Source: Candidatus Latescibacterota bacterium
GTDB taxonomy: Bacteria > Latescibacterota > UBA2968
Length of the DNA: 18,165 nt
Assembly: GCA_038279365.1 (NCBI GenBank)
Contig: JAYODI010000102.1
Location: 1-18,165 of the forward strand
Direction: 5' to 3'
The translations under genes and the position numbers were made by a program. The notes under the pieces are model-generated. The model worked only from the letters and a program-made list of their open reading frames with translations, was not told the origin of the DNA and ran no database searches. Below are positions 1 through 16,924 of the stretch, piece after piece; the first letter of the stretch is position 1, and each line of letters begins with the position of its first letter.

Positions 1-2
1 TG

Positions 3-140
3 CGAATCGACGAAACTGCGAATCAGCGAAACTGCGAAACCACGAATCAACGAAACTGCGAATCAAAATCTTTGCGTCCATTCGCCTATTCGCCTATTCG
101 CCTATTCGTCCATTCGTCCATTCGTCCATTCGTCTATTCG
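3..140. repeat. Two oppositely oriented octamer tandem arrays: 8 x CGAAnnnn (3-66) and 8 x nnnATTCG (77-140)
   Basis: Left units: cgaatcga, cgaaactg, cgaatcag, cgaaactg, cgaaacca, cgaatcaa, cgaaactg, cgaatcaa. Right units: tccattcg, cctattcg x3, tccattcg x3, tctattcg. The left array may extend beyond the window edge. Confidence 0.95.
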
Positions 141-148
141 AAATCTTT

Positions 149-562
149 CTACGTGAGTTCTTGTCTTGCACCCAGTGTCCAGGCACGGGGGTGGTGATCA
201 AATCCGATATGGGGATAGTACTCGGCAGCGGCAGGGGCGGCAAGTAGAATTAAGCCTGCTGTGGGTTCGAGTGCGGCTTGGGTGCGGCGAATAAGTTCTT
301 TGCCAATGCCTTGTTTTTGATGCGTTTCTCTTACGGCAAGGTCAGAGAGATAGGCACAAAAATGAAAATCGGTGACGGTGCGTGAGATGCCAACAAGGAG
401 GTTCTCGTCCCAGGCGGTGACGATGAGGTTGGCATGTTCGATCATACCTGCCATGCAGGTTCTGTTGTCTATGGGGCGACGTTCGCCCAGCGTGGATGCT
501 TTGTAAAGTTCGATAACCTCATCGAGGTTGAGGTCATTGCCTATTTGATAGGTGATGGGCAT
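149..562 (-). CDS. GNAT family N-acetyltransferase
   Basis: 137 aa. Acetyl-CoA-binding motif A (YLSDLAVRETHQKQGIGKELI) and C-terminal AAEYYPHIGF. Start abuts the upstream gene's stop, with an SD-like AAGGAG upstream. Confidence 0.92.
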   Translation of the reverse strand: MPITYQIGNDLNLDEVIELYKASTLGERRPIDNRTCMAGMIEHANLIVTAWDENLLVGISRTVTDFHFCAYLSDLAVRETHQKQGIGKELIRRTQAALEPTAGLILLAAPAAAEYYPHIGFDHHPRAWTLGARQELT

Positions 563-1033
563 TTAGTTGAGAGCTCCTTCTTCTAACCATTGGGTGAGTT
601 GGGTCATGAGGTCTTCGTTTGGGAGTGCTTCGCGCAAGGGTTCTGTGAAGTTAAGCCGATAGCCGTTGGGGTCTATGATGATGACTTCACGTGTGTTCCA
701 AGGGCGATTGTGTTGTCCTGAGATTTGCAATTCGTTGTGTTTGCGGGCGCGTGTGGCAATGGCATCTACCGATTCGCGCAGGGCCGAAAAATTGAGTGTG
801 ACGCCGGTTCCTTTTGTGAGGGGTGCGGGGTGGGTGTGGTTTTCTTCTATGAGCATGATATCGGCATGAGGCGCCCAGCGCAAGTGCGATACAAAGGGTT
901 GCCCATTGGGCCCTGGCATTTGTGAGATAAGTGAAAAACCGAGAATGTCACAATACCAGCGTGTTGAGTGGTGCAGGTCTGTGACCAAGAGGGTGGTGTA
1001 GGCCGGCATTTGGTAATCGTATTGCGTATCCAT
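563..1033 (-). CDS. VOC family (glyoxalase/bleomycin-resistance-like) protein
   Basis: The likely real start is the ATG at 1033 (MDTQYDY..., 156 aa), preceded by AGAAAGGGG. VOC motifs: LLVTDLHHSTRWYCDILGF and RPWNTREVIIIDPNGYRLNF. The longer 349-aa ORF call overlaps the MFS gene. Confidence 0.88.
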   Translation of the reverse strand: MDTQYDYQMPAYTTLLVTDLHHSTRWYCDILGFSLISQMPGPNGQPFVSHLRWAPHADIMLIEENHTHPAPLTKGTGVTLNFSALRESVDAIATRARKHNELQISGQHNRPWNTREVIIIDPNGYRLNFTEPLREALPNEDLMTQLTQWLEEGALN

Positions 1034-1065
1034 AGATCCCCTTTCTGTTGGGCAAACAGAAGATT

Positions 1066-2242
1066 TTAGACCGTTTCTAATGCGATGGGCGATTTTTGTG
1101 CGCGTCTTAAGAGGGTGAGAAGAGAGATGCCTGTGAGTGTGATGACGCCGACAATCCAGTAGGTTGCGATGGTGCCGTTGTGGTCGAGATACATGCCCAA
1201 GAGGGGCGAAAAAAATGCAAAACTTAAGTTGCCTGATAAGCTGACAATGGATATGACTGTGGCGCGATTTTGATCTTTTATTTGTCGGTTGATATAGCCT
1301 GTAAGCGTGGGGCGATAAGCACCGCGCACAATTTGTTGGAGAGCTAAAAAAACGATTGCAACTGGCATAATAAAGAATGTGGGCAATAAAAATGAGAGTG
1401 CCAAAAGCAGACCCATGACGAGTAAAGCAATGCGATATTTTTTGATGTGGTTGACCAATACTTTGGCCGAAAAGGCAGCAATGATGTTGAAGAAACAAAA
1501 GATGGCACCAAACCACACAATGTCGATGCTGACATGTGTGAAGTAGGGTTCGTAGAGCCAAAAACCACTTCGGCTTGCAAAACCGATAAGGGCTGACAGC
1601 CCCATGACCCAAAGAATGCGGGGTGATTTGATGACAAGGTGTAGATTTTGAAGAATGTGTGCCTGATAGCTTTGGGTGCTTTTTTCTCTTTCAATTTCGA
1701 CAAAGCGCATGGCCAATGCACTGGCAGTAAAAGCACTGCCCACGCTGATCCAAAAAGGGGAGGTTGGGGTTGAGCGTGTAAAGCAAACTGCTGATAACAA
1801 CCCCTACGGCTTGTCCGGCAAAGATGAATGAGGCGGCACGCCCGTCGATGCGGGCATATTCGTCTTCGCGGCCCAAACGATGAAGGCTTTCATATAACAA
1901 GGCAGAGTCTGCACCACTGCCAAAGGTGAGCCCCAGACCAAAGAGGGCTTCGGCAAACGCAAAGGCGTAGAAAGATTGTGTGTGGATGTAGATGGTAAGT
2001 GCGATGCCGAGGCACAGACCAGCACAAAGCAATGAAAGCCGACGCGAAATTTTGTCGGCAACAACACCCGTGGGCACTTCAAAGATCACAACGGATAATG
2101 CGGCAATGGATTGTAGCCACATAATTTCGGTATAACTCAAGCCTTTCCATCGGAAATAAGGCGTGATGACGGGGCCGATGATGAGCATGCCGTAGAAGAA
2201 TCGATAGAGGGTGTAGTTTTGTATGTTGCGTTCGTAGGACAT
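1066..2242 (-). pseudogene. MFS transporter interrupted by a single-base frameshift (pseudogene, slippage site or sequencing error)
   Basis: The N-half (1691-2242) has MFS motif-A-like FEVPTGVVADKISRR and GSGADSALLYESL. The C-half continues in another frame. Removing one base from CTC CCC TTT TTG G (plus 1752-1760 aaaaagggg) gives ...NPNLPFWISVGSAF..., a 391-aa hydrophobic MFS. Confidence 0.88.
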
Positions 2243-2250
2243 GGTTAAGA

Positions 2251-2280
2251 AGCGGTCAGCTTTCAGTTTTCAGCGGTCAG
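2251..2280. repeat. Heptamer tandem repeat AG(C/T)nnTC x4
   Basis: agcggtc agctttc agttttc agcggtc ag, located 9 nt upstream of the MFS start codon. Confidence 0.8.
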
Positions 2281-2330
2281 TAAAACTTACATTGACGCAC
2301 CTTTGTGGTGATAGAGAATGGGTTTTAACA

Positions 2331-2366
2331 AATAAAAAACCCGCCGAAGCAAGGCTTCGGCGGGTT
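2331..2366 (-). terminator. Intrinsic terminator in the leader of the MFS operon (attenuator)
   Basis: Minus strand AACCCGCCGAAGC-CTT-GCTTCGGCGGGTT is a perfect 13-bp stem running into a U6 tract (UUUUUUAUU). It lies about 90 nt upstream of the MFS ATG. Confidence 0.9.
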
Positions 2367-2416
2367 CAAATCAATGGATGTGCGTTTGTTTATATCCGTA
2401 TGAATGCCCGCCGAAG
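2355..2416 (-). promoter_or_regulatory. Antiterminator hairpin competing with the terminator
   Basis: Minus-strand CTTCGGCGGG (2416-2407) is identical to part of the terminator 3' arm, so it is perfectly complementary to the terminator 5' arm CCCGCCGAAG (2364-2355). TTCA/TGAA and GGAT/ATCC pairs extend the stem inward. Confidence 0.75.
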
Positions 2417-2557
2417 TAGCTTTTTATGTCCTTCATTCTTAATCGTGGCAGATGAATTACGACCAAGACCCATATTGGAGCGTACATGACCATTGGCCAC
2501 GATAGCTGAAGCTGTCGCGGTCATGGGTTTGTTATGTTGGCGGGTAAAGATGGTCAT
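2390..2557 (-). CDS. Putative leader peptide, 55 aa: MTIFTRQHNKPMTATASAIVANGHVRSNMGLGRNSSATIKNEGHKKLLRRAFIRI
   Basis: Translated by hand from ATG 2557 to TAA 2392-2390. Weak SD AAGAGA upstream and an alternative in-frame ATG at 2524. It lies between a promoter and the terminator and contains the antiterminator arm. Confidence 0.6.
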   Translation of the reverse strand: MTIFTRQHNKPMTATASAIVANGHVRSNMGLGRNSSATIKNEGHKKLLRRAFIRI

Positions 2558-2598
2558 GTTGATTCTCTTGAGTTTTAAATGATTTGTTACCGAGGCTG

Positions 2599-2637
2599 AA
2601 GATAGGTCGGTTGGGTGAGTGATGTCAAGTTTTTTTT
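2599..2637 (-). promoter_or_regulatory. Sigma70-type promoter for the leader-MFS-VOC-GNAT operon
   Basis: Consensus -35 TTGACA (2628-2623), 18-nt spacer, -10 TATCTT (2604-2599), and an upstream A-tract resembling an UP element. Confidence 0.65.
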
Positions 2638-2818
2638 AGAAAAAAGATTCGCATATGGAAATAGATTTGTGATAAGTGCAATTAAAATAATTGTATATGG
2701 TTCGTCATTTTGTTATGAGGTTTGTATTGATATCGTGCTCTTGATAAAGATGTGTTTTGGGTTAATATCTGAATGTAAGTGTTACATTATTGGGTGAATA
2801 ATCAGGCAGGTTGGTTGC

Positions 2819-3115
2819 TCAAACCGAGGATAGTTCGGAGATACCTTTTAATTGCTCACCCATGTTTTTTTCGGTGATCTTAAGATCGTAGTCTACTTGC
2901 AGGTTCAGCCAATATTGTGGTGATTGACCAAAGGCACGGCCAAATAAAAGGGCCAATTCTGCTGTTATGGGGCGTGTACCATTTATCACATGCGATACGC
3001 GCATAGGTGAAATGCCAATTGTACGGGCGAATTTTGCCTGAGAAATATTTAATTCTTCTATGATTTCACGCAAGAATGATCCTGGATGTATGGGGGGTAA
3101 GCCGTTCTTAATCAT
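2819..3115 (-). CDS. higA: HigA family addiction module antitoxin (HTH-XRE)
   Basis: Motifs PPIHPGSFLREI, ISQAKFARTIGIS, RPITAELALLFGRAFGQSPQYWLNLQ. ATG 3115 is preferred over 3121 because of AGGAG spacing. Confidence 0.93.
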   Translation of the reverse strand: MIKNGLPPIHPGSFLREIIEELNISQAKFARTIGISPMRVSHVINGTRPITAELALLFGRAFGQSPQYWLNLQVDYDLKITEKNMGEQLKGISELSSV

Positions 3116-3127
3116 GGGCATCTCCTA

Positions 3128-3409
3128 TTAATGATAATCAACAATTTCAACATCTATTGCATTGCCATCTTCAAAGCGGAAACAAATGCGCCATTGGTTA
3201 TTGATGCGGATACTCCACTGACCAAGTCGGTTGCCTTTTAAGGGCTCCAAACGATTCGATGGTGGTAATCGGAGGTCGTTTAAACGTGTTGCTGCGTTTA
3301 GTTGTGTGAGTCGCATTGCTGCACGGATATGTATAGAGGGAGGATATCGGCGCGATTTTCCCGTTAAAAAAAAGCGTTGCGTTTCTGCGTCTGAAAATGA
3401 GCAAATCAT
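3128..3409 (-). CDS. higB: HigB family (RelE/ParE superfamily) toxin
   Basis: MICSFSDAET..., DLRLPPSNRLEPLKGNRLGQWSIRINNQWRICFRF, ending in VDYH. The toxin precedes the antitoxin, as in higBA. Start placed at ATG 3409 (93 aa). Confidence 0.93.
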   Translation of the reverse strand: MICSFSDAETQRFFLTGKSRRYPPSIHIRAAMRLTQLNAATRLNDLRLPPSNRLEPLKGNRLGQWSIRINNQWRICFRFEDGNAIDVEIVDYH

Positions 3410-3419
3410 AAGCAATAAA

Positions 3420-3448
3420 AAAGTAAACAAAATGTTTATGTTTGGCAA
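3420..3448 (-). promoter_or_regulatory. higBA promoter with palindromic operator
   Basis: -35 TTGCCA (3448-3443), 17-nt spacer, -10 TACTTT (3425-3420). The inverted repeat TAAACA-N3-TGTTTA (3424-3438) lies in the spacer. Confidence 0.6.
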
Positions 3449-3485
3449 ATTGTATTTGGTTGTCTCTTGATTGGTATTTTATGTG

Positions 3486-4676
3486 TCATTCTGGCAGGGA
3501 GATGGTCATCATATCTGCATTGCCAAAGTAGTCGGAGCCAAACAGTACGCGTTGTCCATCGGGGCTGAAGTTTTGGTGTGGATGTGCGGGACCACCACGG
3601 GGATGATGCCCTGCGGTGAGAAGTTTACGCCCCCCATTGACGAGGTCTATGAGGTAGATGTCGCCTTTGTGAGAGTCGCCAATGGCACGTCTGCGGTCTG
3701 GTGTGGCGGCGCAATGCCAGTAGGAGGCCACGGGAATTTGATCGTGAAACATCACTTCATTTGTGCGCACGTTGATGGAGGCGATGCCGTGTGGTTTGAG
3801 CCTGCGTGGGTCGGTGGGTTTTTGACCACCTGAGATGTTGAAGAACACATAATCTTCGGTGACCCACACTTCGTGTGTGATCCACTCGGTTGGGGCTTCT
3901 TGATAGAGGGGGTGGTTGTTGCTGCCATCGGCATTGACGAGCCACATACGTTGTGGGGCATCGCCACCTGTTTCGTGGCAGTAGAGAATTTCGCCAGACT
4001 TAAAGGGATTGGCTTGTACGTGGCCAATGCGAAAAGGCAAGTCGATGACGGTGGAAATGGCACCGGTTTTGAGATCGACACTTTGGAGCGCGTAGGTGGT
4101 ATCGGTTTTGTTGGGGGTGGTGCGAATGCCCACATAGGCGTGGGTTTCGTTGGCATCGAGGCTGAACCCGCCAGATTGGTTTGTGTTTTTGGGAAAGGTG
4201 GCAATGACTTTATTGTAGGCACTTGGTTTTTTAACTTTGCCAGTGGCACTGTCGCCCAATAGGGCACCTATGTTGGTGGCGACAAGTGAAGGCGATTCGT
4301 TTCGTTTGCCTTGCAGAGTGTACATGGTGGCTTCTTTGCGTGATAAAAAAACAGGGCCAACAGGGGCTTGGGTGAGTTGGATCAATTCACCCGTGGCTTC
4401 GGAATACGCAAAGTATTGGTAGCTGCCTGTGCGGTTAGATCGAAAGACAATATATTGGCCATCATGCGTCCATTGAGGGTGGGTTTGATAGGTTTTCATA
4501 TCTGAGGCGGGGTCTGTGGTTAGGGCTGTGACGGTGATACCTGTGAGTGAATCGACAAATGTTTTTCGTTCGGAGGGAAATCTGCGCCCCACTTCGGATG
4601 CATAGATTGTTGTGGCCAGTAAGAGGGGCAGGAGCCCGATAGTCAAGTAAGTGCGTACACGATTAGGGTGGAACAT
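3486..4676 (-). CDS. Oligogalacturonate lyase family (PL22-like) beta-propeller protein with signal peptide
   Basis: 396 aa. Motifs YQTHPQWTHDG, GHVQANP, YCHETGGDAPQRMW, ITHEVW and HPHQNFSPDGQRVLFGSD match the Ogl pattern. Hydrophobic N-terminus ending IYA. SD AAGGAG. Confidence 0.8.
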   Translation of the reverse strand: MFHPNRVRTYLTIGLLPLLLATTIYASEVGRRFPSERKTFVDSLTGITVTALTTDPASDMKTYQTHPQWTHDGQYIVFRSNRTGSYQYFAYSEATGELIQLTQAPVGPVFLSRKEATMYTLQGKRNESPSLVATNIGALLGDSATGKVKKPSAYNKVIATFPKNTNQSGGFSLDANETHAYVGIRTTPNKTDTTYALQSVDLKTGAISTVIDLPFRIGHVQANPFKSGEILYCHETGGDAPQRMWLVNADGSNNHPLYQEAPTEWITHEVWVTEDYVFFNISGGQKPTDPRRLKPHGIASINVRTNEVMFHDQIPVASYWHCAATPDRRRAIGDSHKGDIYLIDLVNGGRKLLTAGHHPRGGPAHPHQNFSPDGQRVLFGSDYFGNADMMTISLPE

Positions 4677-4685
4677 TGCAACTCC

Positions 4686-5405
4686 TTAGGTTGAGACAAG
4701 TGCGTTAAAGTGTGCGGGCACTTTTGTGTCGAAAGTCATTTCTGCTTTGGAATAGGGGTGTGTGATGGTAAGTGAAGCGGAGTGCAGCATGAGTCGTTTG
4801 ACGCCTTTTCCTTTTTGGCCATACGATTTGTCACCCACCACGGGAAAGCCTTTTTCGGCAAAGTGAACACGAATTTGATTTTTGCGCCCAGTGATGAGAT
4901 CGACTTCGAGCAAGCTGAAGTCGGCAGATTCTTTCAGCACTTTGTAACCTGTTTTGGCCAGTTTTCCTTTTTTAGGATCGCTTACTGAAAAGACTTTGAA
5001 GACGCTGTTTTCTGCCAAGTAAGATGTGATAACATCTTCTTTTTGGGGTAAGATGCCGTGCACGACTGCATAATATTTTTTCTTAAAGTTTTTCCATTCA
5101 TCCTGAAGATGACGTTTGGCTTCTTCGGTTTTGGCAAAGATGATAACACCCGATGTGTCTCTGTCGAGGCGGTGTACGACAAAAACGCGGTTTTTGGATT
5201 TTGAATTGCCTTTTTTGACATATTCGTTGAGGCGATAGTAGGCGGTTTCTTCTGTAATGCGATCCGTGCTGACGGTGAGGAGACCATTTATTTTATTGGC
5301 AACCAAAATGTCGCGATCTTCGTAGAGTATGGGTAGGCCTCTGGGTTGATATTTTTTGGGAGGTGGTTTAAAGTTTTTTACTTTGTCTTGCGGGGATTGG
5401 TTCAT
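4686..5405 (-). CDS. RluA family RNA pseudouridine synthase
   Basis: ILYEDRDILVANK, catalytic VHRLDRDTSG, ITGRKNQIRVH, PVVGDKSYG, RLMLHS. No S4 domain. Confidence 0.95.
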   Translation of the reverse strand: MNQSPQDKVKNFKPPPKKYQPRGLPILYEDRDILVANKINGLLTVSTDRITEETAYYRLNEYVKKGNSKSKNRVFVVHRLDRDTSGVIIFAKTEEAKRHLQDEWKNFKKKYYAVVHGILPQKEDVITSYLAENSVFKVFSVSDPKKGKLAKTGYKVLKESADFSLLEVDLITGRKNQIRVHFAEKGFPVVGDKSYGQKGKGVKRLMLHSASLTITHPYSKAEMTFDTKVPAHFNALVST

Positions 5406-8239: not shown

Positions 8240-9721
8240 TTAAACCTGTCGAGAGTCGGGTTGATGAGGAAGCACATCACCTGTGTGCATGAAGAAATCT
8301 AAAAGGTGTGTTTCCATCTGGTGCTCTATGTTTGCATATGCTGTGTGACCGCTCAAGTTTTGTGTTTCATGTGGGTCTTTTTTGAGATCAAAGAGTTCAT
8401 GGTGGCCTGTGTAATAGCGGCGGATATATTTGTATTTTGGGGTACGACACATCACAGCGTGAGAGCCTTCTTTGTGAGAGGGGATTGCGGATCGGCTTTG
8501 GCGTGCGTAAAAGCTGTTGGGTGGCATTTGGTCAACATCTGTGTTGATGAACGCATCTTCGCCTTTTCGAGCACCCACTTCTGCAAAAACGGCTTCGTGA
8601 ATGGGTGTTTCATCACCGGATAGTGAATCACGCAATGAGGTGCCTTGATGGGCATAACCGGGATCTATGTCTAAGAGATCGTAGAGTGTTGCGGTGATAT
8701 CTAAGAGTTCGGTGAGGTGTTGGCGGTTGCCATTTTGAACGGGCACATTGGCTGGTGGTTTGATGACGAGCGGCACGTGAAGGAGACAGTCTTGTAGGGT
8801 ACTGTGTGTTTTTTCGGGGAGAGAATAATCGCCCGTAAAGTCACCGTGGTCCGAAAAGAAGAAGATCCACGTGTTGTCGTATAAACCTTGTTCGATGAGG
8901 GCATTGACCACTTTGCCAAAGAGGTCGTCCATTTTGGCACACATGGCATAATAGATGCGTTTGACATCGCGCCACATGTCTTCTGTGATGTTGTCGCTTT
9001 GAAACCCTTCACGTAAGGCATCGAGAATCTTGGGAAGGTTTGCCTCTTGGGACGGTGTGGGAATGCGTGGTGGGAGTTTGTTTGGGTCGATGGCGTTGTA
9101 AAAGTCTTCTTCGGCGTAATAGGCTGGGTGAGGTTTGCCAAGGGGTAAATAACAGACAAAGGGTTGATCGCTTGATTGGTTTTTGATCATGTCAACTGCG
9201 CCGAGCACACACGCGGTGTCTGCATCCCAATGTTGTGGGCCATCCCCTTCTTTGGGGAGTACGCCGCGATAGAATGCACCGTGTCGTGGATCATCTGCTT
9301 GTAGGGGTGGGGCTTGTTTGTATGGCATGTGTTCGGTGTATTTGCCTTTGGGTTGAAACTTGGTGTCGCAATAGTGGAGGTAGTCTTCTGGTTTTTGAAC
9401 GCGCACAAGATCGTTTTTGCCCCCCCACCAAATGTGATACCCTTCTTTTTTGAGGACAGACAGAAGATTGGGTTCGTGTTCTTTGAGCATATTGCGCATG
9501 GACCGATGGCCGTGAACATGTGTGTACCAGCCTGTCATAAAGGAACATCGGCTGGGTGTGCAGACGGGATTTTGTGCAAAGGCATTGCTGTAGGAAACGG
9601 CATCGGACGCGACCAAGGCATCCAGATTGGGTGTGACGGCTGCTGGATTGCCTTGGTGGTTGAGCACATCGCCCCGATAGGAGTCAGGAACAAAAAGTAC
9701 AATGTTGGGTTTGTTTTTCAT
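8240..9721 (-). CDS. Formylglycine-dependent (S1, Cys-type) sulfatase-like hydrolase
   Basis: KPNIVLFVPD, TPNLDAL, NPVCTPSRCSFMTG (CxPxR), KPHPAY, FFSDHGD, ELFDLKKDPHETQNL. Start ATG 9721 (493 aa); no evident signal peptide. Confidence 0.92.
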   Translation of the reverse strand: MKNKPNIVLFVPDSYRGDVLNHQGNPAAVTPNLDALVASDAVSYSNAFAQNPVCTPSRCSFMTGWYTHVHGHRSMRNMLKEHEPNLLSVLKKEGYHIWWGGKNDLVRVQKPEDYLHYCDTKFQPKGKYTEHMPYKQAPPLQADDPRHGAFYRGVLPKEGDGPQHWDADTACVLGAVDMIKNQSSDQPFVCYLPLGKPHPAYYAEEDFYNAIDPNKLPPRIPTPSQEANLPKILDALREGFQSDNITEDMWRDVKRIYYAMCAKMDDLFGKVVNALIEQGLYDNTWIFFFSDHGDFTGDYSLPEKTHSTLQDCLLHVPLVIKPPANVPVQNGNRQHLTELLDITATLYDLLDIDPGYAHQGTSLRDSLSGDETPIHEAVFAEVGARKGEDAFINTDVDQMPPNSFYARQSRSAIPSHKEGSHAVMCRTPKYKYIRRYYTGHHELFDLKKDPHETQNLSGHTAYANIEHQMETHLLDFFMHTGDVLPHQPDSRQV

Positions 9722-9743
9722 GGGGGATTGTCTTTGCTTGATC

Positions 9744-11855
9744 TTAGAGTTTTGTGTGTACGGATGAACCTGCATTGAGTCCTGTGGGCAGTGACATACT
9801 GATCTGACGAGCGGTTTCATTGTTTTGTTTGACTGTTAAGTTGAGTGTACCCTCACCGGCGGTTGGGTCGGCTGCTGAAAGTGTCCACACATTGTCGGTA
9901 TGGCGAAGCAGTATTACACAGGGTTGGTCTGCTGTGATGTGCCAGTTTGCGGCATGGATTTGACTGGGTTGATAAAATACGATGCCCAGTGTTTGATCTT
10001 CTTCGGACCAGACGGCTTGTTGCTGTGCCGAATTTGCAATGATTTCAAAGGGGGCTTTATTTGCCAAATTGGGCATTTCTTTGGCATCTATGTTTGGGTA
10101 AATGGCATACGCATACGCTTTTTCTTTTGGGCTGGCACCGTGGGGAATGGTGAGGGTGAAGACACTGTCTGTTACGGTGGCATCAGATCGTTGTGCGCTG
10201 ATGCGTGTCCACGCGCCCGTACGTATGCCTGTGGCTAAGTGGGCTTGGGTTTCTTTGGGAAACAGATATCCGATGCCATCGTGGTGAACCCATTCTACGT
10301 TTTGGAGGGTTTCGCCTTCGGGGAAGGTTTCGGAGGTTTTGCCTTTGCCTAATGTGACATCTCCTGCCAAGCGGCATTGGTTGACTGTGGTGATTACATC
10401 GTATTTTGCGGTATTGTTGATGTTTGTGCCCAAACACACGACCATGTTGTTAAAAAAGAACCACGCTTTTTGTGCGCTGAGTGTTTCCCGCTTGAGGTCG
10501 AAAGTGGCAACACCCATTGTGCCATCTGATGTGCCGCCCACAAATGCCGATTCGCCTTGTCGTTTGGGTTCTCCGGGGATGTGGGGTTCCAGTGTTACGG
10601 TGGTACCTGGAATGCGTTGCCAATCCCACACAGGATAAAGCCCTCCGTATTCGTTGCCGTGTTGCATGATGCACATGGCGCCTTCGGCTAAATAATGACT
10701 GAGGAGGCCATCATCGGTTCCTGAGAGACCGTCTGTGTTGAAGGTGCGGGTGGAATACATTCGGGCTGATGCGTACCAATTGTCGCGATGGTGCACCATC
10801 ATATCACTTCGGTAGAAATGTTTGTTGCCGACAAGTGGGGGCGCTGGCTTTCCTGCTACACGATTGGCCAAGGCTTGAAATTCTTCTTCGCGCCCAGTTG
10901 GTAATGTGAGCATGCCTTCTGCGGCTGGGCCAAGATATTCGGCAGATCGCCTGCCTCGGCGAGGAACGGCAATTTCTCGACCTCGGGCACCAAAATCGCC
11001 TTGACCATTGTGTGACAACCATTGTGAGCCGTCTAAGATATAGTGCGATAAAAGTGCAATTTTTTCTGGTGCATAGGCAAATGCTGTTCCTGCTGTGAGA
11101 TTGGCCAGTCGCACATTGTCACGGGTGAAACCAGCTCCGTAACCATGGTTATAAATCACCTGTTTGTGCTGGTGAAATGAGAAATCGGGCTGGATGCCTT
11201 CGTCGTCACTGATGCGAATTTCGGAGGCGATGAGTTCAAATGCGCGACGTAGAAGATCGGCATCGCGCTGTAATACGGCGCGTCGGGCGGTGATTTCGGC
11301 TTGCCACACCAAGTTTTGACCCGTTGTGCCAAGGATGGCACGTTCGAGATTTTGACCGCCTTTGGTCATTTGAAAATCGCTTAGATGGCCGTCGCGCATG
11401 AGCATGATCTGTGAGAGCATGCCGGGTGCACCAATGGCATCCCACCACCACTTGCGGCGCGGGTCTTTGTGCAACCAATAGTCGAGGGCGGTGTTGATTT
11501 GTTTGTCCAATTCGGGATTTTGGTATAGGGGAGAGTCGGGAGAGAACCACGCCTGTGTGAGTCTGAGCAAACGACTGAGGTGTTGTGCTGGCTCCCAAGA
11601 AGTTGTGGCGGTTCCTTCGTAGTTGACTTCTTCCCAGTGCCCATCGGGTTGGAGCGTTTGACGGTAGTCTGTGACACGATCCATGTCGGGGGCTTCTTTG
11701 AAGGGGGCCAACATGCGTTCTTTGATGATGATCATATCGTTTTCGTAATTTTTAGGTGTTGTCATGTTGTTCTCCTCGGCTGGGATTCCCTTTGTGGGGA
11801 GTATCAATCCTACCAAAATCCACAACCAATATGTGTTATATGTTCCATTTCTCAT
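9744..11855 (-). CDS. Polysaccharide lyase family 8 (chondroitin AC/hyaluronate/xanthan lyase-like), secreted
   Basis: WWWDAIGAP, TGQNLVW, EGIQPDFSFHQH (His), YNHGYG (Tyr), RGREI (Arg), WDWQRIPGTT, AQKAWFFF. Start at ATG 11855 (703 aa) with a signal-like N-terminus. Confidence 0.9.
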   Translation of the reverse strand: MRNGTYNTYWLWILVGLILPTKGIPAEENNMTTPKNYENDMIIIKERMLAPFKEAPDMDRVTDYRQTLQPDGHWEEVNYEGTATTSWEPAQHLSRLLRLTQAWFSPDSPLYQNPELDKQINTALDYWLHKDPRRKWWWDAIGAPGMLSQIMLMRDGHLSDFQMTKGGQNLERAILGTTGQNLVWQAEITARRAVLQRDADLLRRAFELIASEIRISDDEGIQPDFSFHQHKQVIYNHGYGAGFTRDNVRLANLTAGTAFAYAPEKIALLSHYILDGSQWLSHNGQGDFGARGREIAVPRRGRRSAEYLGPAAEGMLTLPTGREEEFQALANRVAGKPAPPLVGNKHFYRSDMMVHHRDNWYASARMYSTRTFNTDGLSGTDDGLLSHYLAEGAMCIMQHGNEYGGLYPVWDWQRIPGTTVTLEPHIPGEPKRQGESAFVGGTSDGTMGVATFDLKRETLSAQKAWFFFNNMVVCLGTNINNTAKYDVITTVNQCRLAGDVTLGKGKTSETFPEGETLQNVEWVHHDGIGYLFPKETQAHLATGIRTGAWTRISAQRSDATVTDSVFTLTIPHGASPKEKAYAYAIYPNIDAKEMPNLANKAPFEIIANSAQQQAVWSEEDQTLGIVFYQPSQIHAANWHITADQPCVILLRHTDNVWTLSAADPTAGEGTLNLTVKQNNETARQISMSLPTGLNAGSSVHTKL

Positions 11856-11946
11856 CTTGAAAACGCCCTCACCGTGTTGCAAAAAAGTCCACTTTTTAAA
11901 GTGTTTTAACTTCGATGTTGTATGACTTGACTGGGTTTTGTTTGCC

Positions 11947-12996
11947 TTATTCGGGTGTGTCTTTCCAATTGACCTCGCTTCTGTCAATGACCCAAGGATC
12001 GTTGTAGAGTTCGCGACTGTGTTTTTGCATGGCAGGTGACCATCCCCCACTCCAAGAGAGCCAGTAGGCACTTTTGGGCATGTGGTTTTTGATGAGGGCG
12101 ATGATTTCGCGGGCGTCTTGTGTGTTGGGTTCTGGTTGGCCTGTATCGGTCCAGCCTTCTTCGGCCACGGCAAAAACTTTGTTGGGATGGTTTTGAGTCA
12201 TGGTGTTGTAACTGGCAATGCGGGGATTTGTGGCCGATTTGTCTGTGACATAATCGGAGAAGCCGATCATATCGACATAGGCATCGCCGGGGTAGCGGTC
12301 TTGGAATTTGTCACCGCCGCTGTTTGCGGCACAAAACCAAATGAGATTGTGGAGGCCTTGGGTTTGTGTGAAATATTCAAAGGTCCATATCCATAGCTTT
12401 TTCATATCCTCATCTTCTATTTCTTTAAAGTATTCCAATTCTTCGTTATACGGTTTAAAGATGAGGACGACGCCTTTTTCTTGAAGCCATTTCATGTGGG
12501 GTACATAATAGGTTTCAAAGTGTGCGAGCAGTTTGTTGTTTTTGGGTGTGCCTGTTTGCCATATGTCTGACCACGGGCCGGGTTCTTCTTTGACACCAGA
12601 GTGTCTTACAATGAGTTTCGCCCAAATGCTGATAAGCCCACCTTCGTTCCAATAATCTAAAAAGAGTTGTCGCCTTTTTTCATTTTCGGCATCGCTGTTG
12701 TCGGCCCCTTGACAATAAAAATAATGTTCAAGAATGGCGGGCCATTTGCCTGTTTGTTCAAATATGCCCACACAGTTTCCTGTGGCGTGATAGTGGTGGC
12801 GAAATTGCCCACTGAGCACTTTGTCTTGGTCGGCAATGTGCCCCAGATAAGCCAATACCTTTTTGACATCGGCTGTGGCATTTGGGTCGGCGGGGGGATC
12901 GTATGCAGGGGTTGGTTGGTGTGCCATAAATAAAAAACCAATGATGAGGGTGGGTTGAATGAGTGGATTTAAAATTTTTTTGGATATCACATTCAT
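11947..12996 (-). CDS. Glycoside hydrolase family 26-like protein (atypical), probably secreted
   Basis: PADPNAT..KKVLAYL, LSGQ, TGKWPAI, GVVLIFKPYNEE (acid/base region), GLHNLIW, YPGDAYVDMIGFSDY, KVFAVAEEG (nucleophile), WLSW. Confidence 0.8.
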   Translation of the reverse strand: MNVISKKILNPLIQPTLIIGFLFMAHQPTPAYDPPADPNATADVKKVLAYLGHIADQDKVLSGQFRHHYHATGNCVGIFEQTGKWPAILEHYFYCQGADNSDAENEKRRQLFLDYWNEGGLISIWAKLIVRHSGVKEEPGPWSDIWQTGTPKNNKLLAHFETYYVPHMKWLQEKGVVLIFKPYNEELEYFKEIEDEDMKKLWIWTFEYFTQTQGLHNLIWFCAANSGGDKFQDRYPGDAYVDMIGFSDYVTDKSATNPRIASYNTMTQNHPNKVFAVAEEGWTDTGQPEPNTQDAREIIALIKNHMPKSAYWLSWSGGWSPAMQKHSRELYNDPWVIDRSEVNWKDTPE

Positions 12997-13002
12997 TGTG
13001 GT

Positions 13003-15807
13003 TTATGCGCTCCAAGTGGTTGTGACTGGTATTTCCCATCTTGTGGCGTGACGGGCTTCAAATCCTTGGTGATTGTGTTTGGTGAAGACTCGGCAACCGG
13101 TATTTGTGGGTTCAATGTGACGAATAGGATAACCGTGCTTATTTGTATCGTCTATGGCGAAAAGGGTTTGACCTTGTAGGTTTTGAATGTGTGGCAGGTT
13201 GCTGTCGAGATCAAAATAAGAATTGCCATTTAGGGATTCGTTTGAAAGGATACGCCCGCTTAATGTGGCATTGGGTGCGGTGAGTTCGATGTTGGTTGTC
13301 GAGAGGTTTGTCCCCCCGGTGAGACTGGCAGAAGATGGTGAGCCATTGTTGATTAATAGGGTGGCGAGGCGTGCATCTGTGGTGATGTCTCCCACTTCTG
13401 TAGATAGGGTGATGGGGGTTGTTTGCAATTGACTGACGACGATGTCGGTGCCGTGGGCGGTTTGAACGGCAATGGCGATTGCATCTTGGGGTGCGTTGCT
13501 GGGTAAGGGAAGCACCTGAATGGATTTGACCAAGGTCTGTTTGCCTTGGTTGCCGACAAAAGCGGAGACAAATATGTCTTTTCTGTTTTGTCCTTCAACG
13601 CGACGAATGACGTAGGGCAGTGTGGCTCCTACATCGGTGTTGCGGTGGTCGCGCTGGCCCCATCCGTTGCCAATGAATATGGATTCGTTTGCGCTTCCTG
13701 GAGCGAAGGCTTCGAAGGTGTACCCGTCATCATATGTATAAGAGATGTGCCACGGGTTTTGTTGCTGCGCGTGATGGATATCTGTGAGATCGAGCCCATT
13801 TTCGCCAAAGTTGACGGGTTGTGAGGGGGTGAGATTAAGCCCGTTGACTTGGTAGGTGTTGGTGGGACCATGAAAGATGTAGTCGGCGGTTTGGCCACCT
13901 GATGCGCGAAAGATGTCGAGCAGATAAGAACCCGCACTGCCGTGGTCTATTTGGACAAGGGTTCGTTGATAAGTGGATTCTGAGCCGTAACCATCGGAAG
14001 AAGCTTCCATGGCTTTGATGGTGGGCGTGACGGAGAACAAATGAAAGGTGCCGTGCCGACCGCGTGAGAGCTGGTCTTTGCCATCGATCATGACAAGGTT
14101 GTGGGCACCTGTGCGTGCGGTTTGGTATTTGTCGGGGTGATCCCAGAGATAACCGAGGTCTGACAAGAGTTCGCGCCCATCTTTCCAATAATAAAGGCCG
14201 AGGCCATCTATATGATGATGGTTGGCGTGGTCTGCCGCGTTGAGGGAGACGAGGCTCTTACGCCCATCGTCTCCGGTGTGTAAATACCCTTGCGAGAGAT
14301 ACGGAAAGACCACATCGGGCAAATTGAGTGGGGGCGCGGTTTGGTTTGCAAAATGGGGATCGCGGTTGAAGATGGCTTGATCAGCACCTTCTGATGGATC
14401 TTTGGCGGCAAGTTCTTTGAGGAGTGCAATGTGTGTATTTGTAGGGTAAGCAAGTGTGAGCAGGTCTGCAAAGGAGACGCTGATGGTGGTGGATTGATAC
14501 GAGTCGGCAGAGGGCGGGAAGTGAAGATCGCCTTGTAAGGTGTAGATGAGGGCTTGCCAACAATCGCCATAGAGGGTGTCTCTGCAAGCATTAAAGTGAT
14601 CGAGCCGTATACCTGTAGATGTTTGATAACCTATGGGGTCGCTGTAATCGCGAAAGGCGAGTGCAAAGGGTTTGATGCCGTTCATGGTCATCATGGCGTA
14701 AGCGGGAGATTCGGATGTACCACCATCGGGTAAAAACCAATCGTTCACGGTTTTGACAAACCCGTCGAGACCAAAGTGAACAAGGCCCGGATGCCCGACA
14801 CACATGCCCACAACGGCGGCGCCTGCACGGTTGCCAACCGATTTGTTGTTAATGGATGTGTCACAGGCGGCGAGGTAAGTGCTTTCGAGGAGGAGGTCGC
14901 GTTCTATTTTAAGGCGTTCCTCGTGGGTGTAGATGGGTTTGCCGTTGTCTTGTGCGGTGCACGTGAGGCTGTAGGCATCGGCCATGCGCACAACCCAGCC
15001 GCCGTCCATACCCGAAGTGCCAATGCGACTGGCGGCCCAATATCCTGCAAAGATTTTTCGGTCGGGTGTGTTGGGTGGGTAAACGAGTTCATCTTGAGGG
15101 AGGTCGAGAATGTGTTCGGCGGCAATTTTGGGATCCATGCCTGCGTATTCGCCATATCCATAACCTGCGCGAACGAGGTAGGTTGGAAACACGTGGGCAA
15201 AACGTAGGAGGATGGTTTTGGCGGCGTGTGCATAACGCGTGTCGTTTGTGAGCACATAGGCTCGGGCAAGGTTTTGTAATTGGCTGGAGATGTGTTGCAC
15301 TTTGCGCACACGTGTGATGCCTGAGATGCTGGGGCGGGCTTGGTGATAAGCAAAACATTTGAAGGTATCACCGCCGACAAAGGTGAAGGTTTGCTCAACA
15401 CCTCCCCACGTGGATGTGATGGCGATGTCTTCGGGAAATTCGGCATTGGGGAAGACGGTTTTGCAAACAGAACACTGAAGGTTGTTGGGTTCTTCGGGTG
15501 ACCACGACCATTGCCCATTGGGGTGCCACGGCAGGCCTTTGGCTCGGCAGGCTGGACAAGGGCCTACACAGCCAGGTGTGGTGGTTTCGATCATGTTATC
15601 GAGATACGCGGGCGAGATTTGTTGGGCAATCTCTTCGGCTGTTTCGCGCAACGTATCGGTGTAACTTTTTGCCCAATCGTGTTTTTGAATATTCTCTTGG
15701 GCGCGTGCGATATCTTCGGGTTTGATGGTGGTGGCTGGGTGAATGACCTGATCACGGTATTTTTCCCAATCGGACCAGTCTTTTGGATTGATGGTGTTAT
15801 CAGACAT
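13003..15807 (-). CDS. Heparinase II/III-like domain protein (alpha/alpha-barrel plus beta-sandwich lyase-like)
   Basis: 934 aa. LARAYVLTNDTRYA, PDGGTSESPAY, HANHHHIDGLGL..LLSDLGY and TGAHNLVMIDG are typical Hepar_II_III motifs. No signal peptide. Confidence 0.8.
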   Translation of the reverse strand: MSDNTINPKDWSDWEKYRDQVIHPATTIKPEDIARAQENIQKHDWAKSYTDTLRETAEEIAQQISPAYLDNMIETTTPGCVGPCPACRAKGLPWHPNGQWSWSPEEPNNLQCSVCKTVFPNAEFPEDIAITSTWGGVEQTFTFVGGDTFKCFAYHQARPSISGITRVRKVQHISSQLQNLARAYVLTNDTRYAHAAKTILLRFAHVFPTYLVRAGYGYGEYAGMDPKIAAEHILDLPQDELVYPPNTPDRKIFAGYWAASRIGTSGMDGGWVVRMADAYSLTCTAQDNGKPIYTHEERLKIERDLLLESTYLAACDTSINNKSVGNRAGAAVVGMCVGHPGLVHFGLDGFVKTVNDWFLPDGGTSESPAYAMMTMNGIKPFALAFRDYSDPIGYQTSTGIRLDHFNACRDTLYGDCWQALIYTLQGDLHFPPSADSYQSTTISVSFADLLTLAYPTNTHIALLKELAAKDPSEGADQAIFNRDPHFANQTAPPLNLPDVVFPYLSQGYLHTGDDGRKSLVSLNAADHANHHHIDGLGLYYWKDGRELLSDLGYLWDHPDKYQTARTGAHNLVMIDGKDQLSRGRHGTFHLFSVTPTIKAMEASSDGYGSESTYQRTLVQIDHGSAGSYLLDIFRASGGQTADYIFHGPTNTYQVNGLNLTPSQPVNFGENGLDLTDIHHAQQQNPWHISYTYDDGYTFEAFAPGSANESIFIGNGWGQRDHRNTDVGATLPYVIRRVEGQNRKDIFVSAFVGNQGKQTLVKSIQVLPLPSNAPQDAIAIAVQTAHGTDIVVSQLQTTPITLSTEVGDITTDARLATLLINNGSPSSASLTGGTNLSTTNIELTAPNATLSGRILSNESLNGNSYFDLDSNLPHIQNLQGQTLFAIDDTNKHGYPIRHIEPTNTGCRVFTKHNHQGFEARHATRWEIPVTTTWSA

Positions 15808-16027: not shown

Positions 16028-16924
16028 TTATGCGGTGTATTTGTGATCTGCGAGGATAGCGTGGATGATGTTTTGGATGTCTGTTGGATCTACAGCTGGA
16101 CCGTTTATGTGTTGTGCCAGCGTGATTAAGGCTTTCCACAAAGCCCAACCACGTGCGCGTGCCCACATTGCATCGTTTGCCTGAATGGTTTTGCGAAAGG
16201 TTTCGCGGCTTTTTTCGGATAAAAATGTGTAGGCAATGGTGAGGTCACAGGCCGGATCGCCTACGGCAGAACTTCCAAAGTCGATAACGGCAGAGAGGTG
16301 ACCGTTGTGGACGAGCAGGTTTCCTGCACTGACATCACCATGGAGCCAGACGGGTGTGCCTTGATAGGTGGCATTGAGGGCGGTTTCCCAAACGGCGGTT
16401 GCTGTGTGGGTGTCTATTTGGCCGTGTAAGGCAGTGAGTGCGTTACGGGTTTCGGTGTCGTAAATGGTGAGTGGACCGCCGCGATAAAAATTGTGTGTGC
16501 CAGGTGGCGGACCGTCTGTGGGATCTGTTTTTTGGAGTTGAATGAGGAAGTGTGCCAGTGTGGTTGCAAACTGAGTGTGATCGGAAATGTTTTGGTGGGT
16601 GGGGTTTTCGCCATCGAGCCATTTGTAGATGGACCATGGATAGGGATAGGTTTGGGAAGGGGTGCCCATTGCGATTGGGGTGGGTATAGGAAGTGGTAAG
16701 TGAGGCGCGAGCTTGGGCAACCACGTTTGTTCTTTGGCCACTTGCTCAATGTAGGCTTTGGCACTGGGGAGACGTATGCTCATGGTTGTGCCGAGGTGAA
16801 ATGTTTTGTTGTCCCACCCACTTTTTGCAACGGGTTTGATGGGCAGGTGTGCCCACTGGGGAAATTGTGTGGCGACCAACTCGCTTACGAGTGATTGGGT
16901 AATGTTGAATTTTGCGTCTGACAT
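16028..16924 (-). CDS. Aminoglycoside phosphotransferase (APH/choline kinase-like) family protein
   Basis: SGWDNKTFHLG, KEQTWLPKLAP, Brenner motif WLHGDVSAGNLL, AVIDFG, GDPACDL, RARGWAL. Confidence 0.92.
   Translation of the reverse strand: MSDAKFNITQSLVSELVATQFPQWAHLPIKPVAKSGWDNKTFHLGTTMSIRLPSAKAYIEQVAKEQTWLPKLAPHLPLPIPTPIAMGTPSQTYPYPWSIYKWLDGENPTHQNISDHTQFATTLAHFLIQLQKTDPTDGPPPGTHNFYRGGPLTIYDTETRNALTALHGQIDTHTATAVWETALNATYQGTPVWLHGDVSAGNLLVHNGHLSAVIDFGSSAVGDPACDLTIAYTFLSEKSRETFRKTIQANDAMWARARGWALWKALITLAQHINGPAVDPTDIQNIIHAILADHKYTA

Follow-up and report, generated by a model that had tools for sequence, protein, structure and literature searches.

A conserved element located directly ahead of an MFS transporter gene on the minus strand of contig JAYODI010000102.1 (a MAG labelled Latescibacterota; the window, as used below, is the whole 18,165-nt stretch of DNA that was analysed) is, on balance, probably a ribosome-mediated (leader-peptide) transcription attenuator controlling an MFS-VOC-GNAT operon. 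A sequence-only reading of this DNA had proposed such a control element, and the anatomy it described, comprising a leader ORF, an intrinsic terminator and an antiterminator exclusive of it, was present and was kept as a unit before the MFS gene within the genus. The antiterminator and terminator are mutually exclusive because they share the terminator 5' arm. The DNA under study (G000) was compared with G001 and G002, the sole further genomes of its genus, and the conservation counts given below rest on these three related DNA sequences, which are not independent.

The operon consists of the MFS transporter gene (1066..2242), a VOC gene of the glyoxalase/bleomycin-resistance fold (563..1033, 156 aa) that starts 32 nt past the MFS stop, and a GNAT acetyltransferase gene (149..562, 137 aa) with its start codon immediately after the VOC stop. 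The MFS gene is split into two frames in the present assembly by one extra base near 1752-1760; one base is missing from the DNA contigs of run X2 (at 1757) and run X5 (at 1752), and the gene is intact in G001. Drug-binding and acetylation roles of the VOC and GNAT products would follow only from generic Pfam matches with weak database hits behind them, and the operon is presumed to have a resistance role. Among the RNA-library contigs, two runs gave one contig each within the MFS gene (1477-1745 and 1803-1977), for which ends, strand and level were not readable and DNA carry-over is possible, and none lay over the leader.

BLAST aligned the element to G002 over window positions 2649-2330 (query 12-331 of 418, 74% identity) and to G001 over 2645-2325 (query 16-336 of 418, 73% identity). 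The neighbouring genes have similar nucleotide identities (MFS 75-79%, GNAT 79%), while the flanks, upstream of the promoter and from the terminator to the MFS start, did not align. The promoter hexamers, the antiterminator 5' strand (region 2) and both terminator arms were invariant or nearly so in the three genomes, and in all three the unit stood directly ahead of the MFS start with its orientation unchanged. On its upstream side G000 has higBA, whereas G001 and G002 have a divergent aldo/keto-reductase-like ORF, and no regulator gene was a conserved neighbour across the three genomes. The spacer between terminator and MFS start (2243..2333) was about 90 nt in G000 versus 28-30 nt in G001 and G002, and consensus scans found no sense-strand promoter-like site within it in any of the three. 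The G000 spacer also holds a 9-nt direct repeat (2280-2272 and 2259-2251).

The whole element was identified by BLAST in three of 41 relatives, three of 31 family genomes and three of 53 order genomes, as a single copy in each genome, and no genome outside the genus carried it among these relatives, family and order genomes. Remaining BLAST matches were at most 44 nt long and were either terminator-like or at the MFS start; pieces from a sister genus were rejected as copies of the element as they represent an unrelated conserved terminator. One further genome (G038) gave a weak peptide match (E 0.0023) within a 136-aa frame. BLAST of the element against a plasmid collection gave no match and a gapped pattern of the element had 0 matches in metagenome_contigs. 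A scan of genome_contigs with the invariant 16-mer was of no use because it returned only chance matches in unrelated phyla. The leader was also sought with DNA and peptide profiles at 24 MFS-orthologue loci and was found at one, which is G001's own contig. Upstream regions were surveyed visually and for terminators at 23 of these loci, L163 being excluded because it is without upstream DNA, and a simple terminator finder was positive at 11 of the 23 and missed L145 and L161. An unrelated 42-codon ORF and an imperfect terminator abut the MFS start at L161 (62% MFS identity), and a 31-codon ORF and a terminator are located at L145, L155 and L156, which are identical in sequence. Folding of L161 and L145 gave no clear antiterminator, which counts neither for nor against an attenuator.

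It is conceivable, though unlikely, that the unit is instead a gene in its own right, whose product is a 55-aa protein, a small RNA some 260 nt long or the two together, with the operon transcribed through constitutive leakage of the terminator and the repeat of the terminator 3' arm serving the RNA's own fold or function. A promoter of its own, a strong terminator and conservation as a block would suit such a gene, as would retention of the unit in G002, where the MFS and VOC genes are remnants, and some attenuators are known to yield RNAs and peptides that act independently, among them rnTrpL and peTrpL (PMC7968998). Against a free-standing gene stand the single copy in each genome, its unvarying place and orientation right at the MFS start, and the lack of another promoter for the MFS gene in the consensus scans.

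Transcription of the element would begin at a sigma-70-type promoter-like site (2599..2628), composed of TTGACA (2628-2623), an 18-nt spacer and TATCTT (2604-2599), as the sequence-only reading had suggested. This site matched 10 of 12 consensus positions and was the best of six found in a consensus scan of window positions 1-5000. Six sites are no excess over the 6.3 expected by chance, and the promoter call is supported by conservation, G001 and G002 having the same hexamers at the same distance, rather than by the site count. An A-rich invariant block is located immediately 5' of the site. The predicted 5' untranslated leader (2558..2598, from a presumed transcription start) is A/U-rich and largely unpaired in predicted folds, and includes the invariant sequence AAGAGAA (2569-2563), 5 nt ahead of the leader start codon. 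The leader start is without a Shine-Dalgarno site, which is normal here because an AGGAG-like motif precedes just three of the 14 other gene starts in the window. A 10-bp helix across the G000 leader start codon was set aside, its partner not being conserved in G001 and G002.

The leader ORF (2390..2557) was confirmed as 55 codons with an ATG start and a TAA stop. In G001 and G002 it is open with a GTG start, and the sole indel is an in-frame 3-nt difference. The leader frame contained no stops in the three genomes and the other five frames contained one to five stops each. The leader stop codon is located in a 16-nt block, TCATACGGATATAAAC, that is invariant in all three. Three further database peptides from other assemblies, in which gene callers had annotated the homologous ORF, matched the leader (P0002, P0003 and P0004, of which the latter two are 54 aa with an ATG start), although a database that stores called ORFs alone will favour open frames. 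Given the observed substitutions, the probability that a stop-free frame persists by chance was 0.35 and 0.26 in the two genomes. Leader dN/dS was 0.45-0.70 in frame versus 0.55-1.06 in two off-frames, values far above those of the real genes (GNAT 0.19, MFS 0.10), and differences by codon position were 15/13/21, 15/18/19 and 8/13/15. These patterns may weakly suggest selection on the leader peptide, and the ORF is presumably translated; the nearly even spread of substitutions across codon positions would also agree with the RNA being the product of a separate gene.

The peptide had no amino-acid run, consistent with the earlier description of a leader not enriched in one amino acid, and neither a candidate stalling codon nor a known arrest motif could be recognized in it. 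It does include an Ala/Ser/Thr-rich stretch followed by a conserved core, G-[HY]-V-R-P-x-M-G-L-D-L-N-S. Neither a Pfam or NCBIfam family nor a longer related protein was found for the peptide, the latter being weak evidence, and both argue against a protein gene standing by itself. Each of the final nine leader codons is a minority choice for its amino acid (family fractions 0.03 to 0.29), although this usage yields no separate inference because the RNA structure fixes the same bases. It is doubtful that, over and above any gauging of translation speed, the conserved core and the Ala/Ser/Thr-rich stretch constitute a nascent-peptide arrest module that stalls the ribosome in response to a particular small molecule or antibiotic class and induces the matching efflux, sequestration and acetylation operon; were this reading true, it would represent a new arrest-peptide family in an uncultured phylum.

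The intrinsic terminator (2334..2367) comprises a 5' arm (2367-2354), a loop of 3 nt (2353-2351), a 3' arm (2350-2337) and a U-tract to 2334. The GC-rich hairpin with a U6 tract that had been reported was thus recovered, with a stem (2367-2337) of 14 pairs, nine of them G-C, arms that are 100% complementary over 13 nt, a T-rich tail and a predicted energy of -25.4 kcal/mol when folded by itself, and it was conserved in G001 and G002. The antiterminator 5' strand, region 2 (CUUCGGCGGG, 2407..2416), is located within leader codons 48-51. In these Leu-Arg-Arg-Ala codons CTTCGGCGGG (2416-2407) was found as previously noted, and it recurs as the terminator 3' arm (2349-2340) and is the exact complement of the 5' arm (2364-2355). 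With one mismatch or fewer, CTTCGGCGGG had three matches in the window versus 0.79 expected. Region 2 was the best upstream-leader duplex partner of the terminator 5' arm in all three genomes, matched by 0, 0 and 1 of 1000 shuffles. A switch needs the 5' arm to have this partner at the end of the ORF, whereas a plain small RNA does not.

The antiterminator encloses an inner GGAU/AUCC hairpin (2376..2397) around the leader stop codon (2392-2390), in which 2397-2394 pair with 2379-2376; this part of the proposed hairpin held, as all four pairs were invariant in the three genomes. A TTCA/TGAA extension of the helix was valid for G000 and was replaced in G001 and G002, which pair GGGUU(C) with (G)AACCC instead. 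Nascent RNA cut before the terminator 3' arm folded into the antiterminator in all three genomes, with energies of -22.6, -22.4 and -20.4 kcal/mol versus -25.4, -26.3 and -24.0 kcal/mol for the terminator. When a ribosome footprint was masked on the stop codon, as the sequence-only reading had recommended, the terminator was predicted. The whole-transcript energies favoured the terminator state by about 15 kcal/mol, so that a switch must be kinetic, and a kinetic choice between the two folds is assumed in what follows.

The prospect of a conserved and covarying leader in MFS homologues was realized in part: the ORF and both folds were present in the three DNAs of the genus, and covariation was seen at none of the 17 antiterminator pairs. 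Antiterminator pairing was kept in 92% of cells, through sequence invariance only. Two changes in G001 introduce one A-C mismatch and one G-U pair in the antiterminator, where the terminator gains just a G-U pair, and are predicted to weaken the G001 antiterminator. A 1:2 anti-antiterminator (ACCCGCC/GGCGGGC) was not relied on, being weak and broken in G001 (five of seven pairs). Leader sequence without the terminator gave folding z-scores of -1.5, -0.7 and -2.0, which indicates that the leader body is predicted not to be a highly structured RNA, and this lack of unusual structure also counts against an independent small RNA.

The conservation of both alternative structures would be expected as well if a real switch responded to a ligand or to a factor acting in trans, be it a metabolite, an RNA-binding protein or a small RNA, and not to the ribosome, with the ORF being incidental. 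Such control has a rather low probability, slightly below that of a separate gene. It is favoured by the weak evidence for selection on the peptide and by the invariant block containing the stop codon and a further block, ACATCC, invariant in all three genomes, which together exceed the needs of a stop codon and could be a binding site. It is disfavoured by the ordinary folding energy of the leader body, by the lack of a conserved neighbouring regulator gene, and by the reading frame, which all known copies keep open, with the start codon retained and the indel in frame. A stop codon within the antiterminator loop is a prediction of a ribosome-sensing design, and its position here fits ribosome sensing. 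The Rfam search that had been called for gave no match at gathering score over the whole window, and the 12 sub-threshold hits, of which the best on the correct strand reached 20.2 bits against a gathering score of 49.5, offered little to a ligand-based switch as they cover the terminator. The sole cis-regulatory leader models among the 12 were His_leader (RF00514; 19.6 bits versus gathering 49, E 1.2) and rnk_leader (RF01771; 17.1 versus 50, E 5.2), which overlap the terminator region on the correct strand, and membership in either family was rejected as the scores were far under gathering.

That there is no regulation at all, only an ordinary or decaying terminator, possibly with a relic duplication of its 3' arm, and a chance reading frame, is very improbable, since the chance-level count of promoter-like sites, the statistically uncompelling survival of the ORF and the damage to the operon in the G000 assembly and in G002 are set against a block of gene-like identity between unalignable flanks, its invariant or nearly invariant hexamers, region 2 and terminator arms, the lack in G001 and G002 of a same-orientation upstream gene needing a terminator, and the absence of the G000 frameshift from contigs of two other runs.

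Under ribosome-mediated attenuation, transcription would start at the conserved promoter, about 35 nt ahead of the leader start codon, and the RNA would take one of two forms: region 2 paired with the terminator 5' arm, enclosing the stop codon, or the terminator. A pacing ribosome at the last codons or the stop (P site at 2395-2393) would cover the 3' part of region 2 and the inner hairpin and would stop short of the terminator 5' arm (2367 onward), so that the terminator would form and a transcript of about 260 nt would be released. A ribosome that lags or stalls upstream of about codon 42, or that is missing altogether, would leave region 2 free to pair with the newly made 5' arm, which would preclude the terminator and let RNA polymerase continue into the operon. 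Being without amino-acid bias, the long leader would act, in the manner of bmrB, as a general gauge of translation speed rather than as a sensor of a single amino acid. Induction by a ribosome-targeting drug, as had been suggested, would be possible under this scheme and is pure conjecture.

The switching logic proposed here is that of the trp attenuator. In E. coli trpL, a ribosome at the leader end masks region 2 and the 3:4 terminator forms, while an earlier stall allows region 2 to pair with region 3. The trpL leader has 14 codons, tandem Trp control codons and a strong 1:2 helix. The present leader, in contrast, has 55 codons, no control-codon run and a weak 1:2 helix, and untranslated RNA is therefore predicted to read through.

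A closer likeness was found to bmrB of Bacillus subtilis, whose 53-aa leader begins with GTG, has no amino-acid bias mentioned in the published account, precedes the bmrCD multidrug ABC transporter operon and is described as a ribosome-mediated transcriptional attenuator responsive to several translation inhibitors (Reilman et al. 2014, PMC4191407). The suggestion that the present leader is unusually long and of an undescribed class consequently did not stand, bmrB being known already. As described, both systems feature a long leader (53 aa there, 54-55 here), a GTG start (there and in G001 and G002) and an intrinsic terminator with an alternative antiterminator ahead of a drug-transporter-type operon, and read-through is set there by leader translation efficiency, as is proposed here. 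In bmrB the terminator is described as inside the coding region, whereas here the ORF ends 22 nt before the terminator stem and the coding sequence includes the antiterminator 5' strand only. An anti-antiterminator was predicted there, whereas the candidate here is the weak one broken in G001. The transporters (ABC there, MFS here) and the hosts (a Firmicute there, a Latescibacterota-labelled MAG here) also differ, and the comparison is one of descriptions.

Leaders of the vmlR, tlrB, ytbDE and lmo0919 type are short. The uORF attenuators of vmlR, tlrB and ytbDE in B. subtilis and ABC-F leaders such as that of Listeria lmo0919 are described as induced by ribosome stalling under translation inhibitors (PMC13689557, whose references include the Term-seq work of Dar et al. 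2016). They share with the present element a uORF and a terminator/antiterminator before resistance-type genes, and according to that source several of them add a Shine-Dalgarno-sequestering layer and NusG/NusA-dependent pausing. They differ in the genes regulated, and the present element is known from sequence alone.

A limited search of the literature found no paper on attenuators in Latescibacteria, and specialists would find little to surprise them in a mechanism already in the textbooks. If confirmed, the element would add an uncultured marine lineage, labelled Latescibacterota, to the Firmicutes and Proteobacteria in which transporter and resistance-type operons are under ribosome-sensing attenuation, and in genomes beyond culture it would allow stress-induced genes to be recognized by a simple marker in the sequence.

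The sequence features claimed in the sequence-only reading, namely a promoter-like site, a 55-codon ORF, a terminator and a repeated decamer, were all present on the minus strand. The promoter-like site (TTGACA-18-TATCTT, 2628-2623 and 2604-2599) matched 10 of 12 consensus positions and was followed by some 35 nt of A/U-rich 5' leader, the leader ORF (ATG at 2557 to TAA at 2392-2390) and, 22 nt past the leader stop, a strong intrinsic terminator (2367-2337) with a stem of 14 pairs (nine G-C), a 3-nt loop and a U6 tract, which in isolation had a folding energy of -25.4 kcal/mol. The decamer CTTCGGCGGG formed the terminator 3' arm (2349-2340) and occurred a second time within leader codons 48-51 (region 2, 2416-2407), where it is an exact complement of the terminator 5' arm.

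Whole-genome searches placed the element in 3 of 41 relatives, 3 of 31 family genomes and 3 of 53 order genomes, counts that include the genome holding the window (G000), besides which only two genomes of the same genus (G001 and G002) carried it. The alignable block began about 20 nt before the -35 hexamer and ran through the terminator U-tract (2649-2330 and 2645-2325, at 74% and 73% identity); the adjacent genes were similarly conserved (MFS 75-79%, GNAT 79%), and the DNA ahead of the block and the spacer behind it were unalignable. Little or no variation was seen among the three genomes in the two promoter hexamers and the distance between them, in the AAGAGAA block 5 nt ahead of the leader start codon, in region 2, in 16 nt surrounding the leader stop codon or in the two arms of the terminator. 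Six promoter-like sites were found in window 1-5000 against 6.3 expected, a count not above chance, and the case for a leader promoter is therefore built on conservation; the site at 2628-2599 ranked best among the six. A separate MFS promoter past the terminator was sought by consensus scan and no sense-strand site was found between terminator and MFS start in any of the three genomes, the room there being only 28-30 nt in G001 and G002, so that the MFS-VOC-GNAT operon appears to depend on read-through of the leader terminator. In G000 this spacer (2243-2333) was about 60 nt longer and contained a 9-nt direct repeat (2251-2259 and 2272-2280, plus strand).

When the transcript was cut just ahead of the terminator 3' arm, region 2 was predicted to pair with the 5' arm in all three genomes, forming an antiterminator of 10-13 bp that encloses the stop codon and an inner GGAU/AUCC hairpin. 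Predicted energies were -22.6, -22.4 and -20.4 kcal/mol for the antiterminator and -25.4, -26.3 and -24.0 kcal/mol for the terminator. No other segment of the upstream RNA paired as well with the 5' arm as region 2, whose score was equalled by 0, 0 and 1 of 1000 shuffles. Covariation in the antiterminator was absent, with none of 17 pairs changed on both sides across the three genomes and 92% of cells pairing, and two G001 changes weakened it by introducing a mismatch and a G-U, against a single G-U gained by the terminator. The TTCA/TGAA extension of this helix proposed earlier was present in G000 but peculiar to it and does not generalise. The leader body without the terminator had ordinary folding energy (z = -1.5, -0.7 and -2.0), indicating that the whole-region z of -4.9 comes mainly from the terminator. 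No Rfam riboswitch or other family matched at gathering score, and sub-threshold matches sat on the terminator.

The leader ORF is probably maintained, judging from the comparison of three DNA sequences, all of one genus, in which its frame was stop-free and the other five frames had 1-5 stops each. The start codon was ATG in G000 and GTG in G001 and G002, and the sole indel within the ORF was of 3 nt and kept the frame. A profile search of 5.8 billion proteins matched only the leader peptide family, including two 54-aa peptides with ATG starts from other assemblies (P0003 and P0004) and a G001-like variant (P0002); no longer relatives and no Pfam or NCBIfam family were found. The coding signature of the ORF is nonetheless weak. 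Differences by codon position were 15/13/21, 15/18/19 and 8/13/15, dN/dS was 0.45-0.70 in frame versus 0.55-1.06 off-frame and 0.10-0.19 for the MFS and GNAT genes, and random placement of the observed substitutions left the frame open in 35% and 26% of trials. Constraint on the peptide is slight over most of its length, as would be expected of a leader whose translation, not product, matters; a leader acting as a non-coding RNA is also compatible with this pattern. The leader ORF had no Shine-Dalgarno motif, which is no argument against its translation because such a motif preceded just 3 of the window's 14 other gene starts. The last nine sense codons (2390-2419) were all minority codons in G000 (fractions 0.03-0.29 within the amino-acid family), and the RNA structure fixes these bases as well. 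A perfect 10-bp helix (2484-2493 with 2550-2559) was predicted that could sequester the start codon in G000, its partner strand not being conserved in G001 or G002.

The genes downstream form a tight operon on the minus strand, comprising the MFS transporter (2242-1066, Pfam MFS_1), whose best NCBIfam match was distant and TetA(P)-like (57 bits against a cut-off of 750), a VOC/glyoxalase-fold protein (1033-563, Pfam E = 9e-9, best solved relatives only E = 0.005) and a GNAT acetyltransferase (562-149). A drug-resistance operon is thus plausible but rests on generic family assignments. In the window assembly the MFS reading frame is split in two by an extra base in a C-run near 1752-1760. Two other runs, of different studies, yielded DNA contigs with one base fewer at 1757 and 1752, and the gene was intact in G001, so the frameshift is a strain variant or assembly error and does not characterise the lineage. 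In G002 (locus L002, 1850-2620) MFS was down to about 35 codons and VOC to a 70-aa remnant, with leader and GNAT gene intact, and the leader RNA or peptide may therefore have an independent role.

A terminator serving a same-orientation upstream gene is contradicted by G001 and G002, where the upstream neighbour was a divergent aldo/keto-reductase-like ORF and not the higBA-type toxin-antitoxin pair (3448-2819) of G000. The higBA region (2733-3459) looks like a polymorphic insertion; in run X2 a DNA contig joined 2732 to 3460, the shorter side of the joint being just 26 nt. The element was kept within the genus but absent from more distant MFS orthologues, only G001's own contig being positive among 24 loci. 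In certain of these orthologues the promoter was positioned such that the mRNA would be nearly leaderless, and others had the terminator of an upstream gene. At L141/L149 and L144/L165 (about 2955-2995), the arrangement TTGACA-17-TAG(T/C)CT, whose -10 hexamer precedes the start codon by about 6-8 nt, suggests nearly leaderless MFS mRNAs. L161 and the L145 group had an unrelated small ORF and terminator with no clear antiterminator on folding. At L161 (256-456, a metagenome contig with a 62% identical MFS protein) a 42-codon ORF preceded an imperfect hairpin with U8 directly abutting the MFS ATG, which could be an independent, analogous leader; part of the G000 spacer was similar to this imperfect terminator.

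Elsewhere in the window, positions 1-140 contained two tandem-repeat arrays (8/16/24 nt, with units CGAAACTG and CGTCTATT) at a contig depth of about 88 versus about 6 elsewhere in run X2; many contigs ended or diverged there, and the sequence is probably a repeat present in several copies at which assemblies break. Positions 8240-15807 and 16028-16924 covered a glycan-degradation cluster (sulfatase, PL8 lyase, GH26 enzyme and heparinase II/III-like protein) with genes for an APH-family phosphotransferase and a DUF402 protein after it.

Attenuation is the most economical reading of the element, held with slightly better than even confidence. A ribosome whose A site is occupied by the stop codon would have its P site at 2395-2393; with a footprint reaching about 15 nt to either side, it would cover the region 2 3' end and the inner hairpin, short of the terminator 5' arm at 2367. 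The terminator was the predicted fold once this footprint was masked. A ribosome keeping up with RNA polymerase would thus bring about termination, and if it is slowed, stalled or absent upstream, region 2 would be free to pair with the 5' arm ahead of synthesis of the 3' arm, and transcription would read through. Whole-transcript energies at equilibrium favoured the terminator state by about 15 kcal/mol, which means that kinetics must decide between the folds, as in classical attenuators. A putative 1:2 helix was weak and broken in G001, so untranslated RNA is predicted to read through.

The closest precedent is bmrB of B. subtilis, a 53-aa, GTG-initiated leader ORF with intrinsic terminator and antiterminator; how efficiently it is translated governs read-through into the transporter genes bmrCD, and it responds to several ribosome-targeting antibiotics (PMC4191407). 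A 2026 paper lists bmrCD, vmlR, tlrB and ytbDE as having one uORF-attenuation design in common (PMC13689557). The bmrB ORF contains the terminator whereas the present ORF ends ahead of it; here the anti-antiterminator is weak, the regulated genes differ and the host belongs to another phylum. A limited literature search found no paper on an attenuator in Latescibacteria. Given the bmrB precedent, the length and unbiased composition that had suggested an undescribed class are no grounds for one. A long leader with no amino-acid bias would suit a general gauge of translation speed. The element is not a new kind of sensor; it is probably a new member, in an uncultured lineage, of the known family of ribosome-mediated attenuators.
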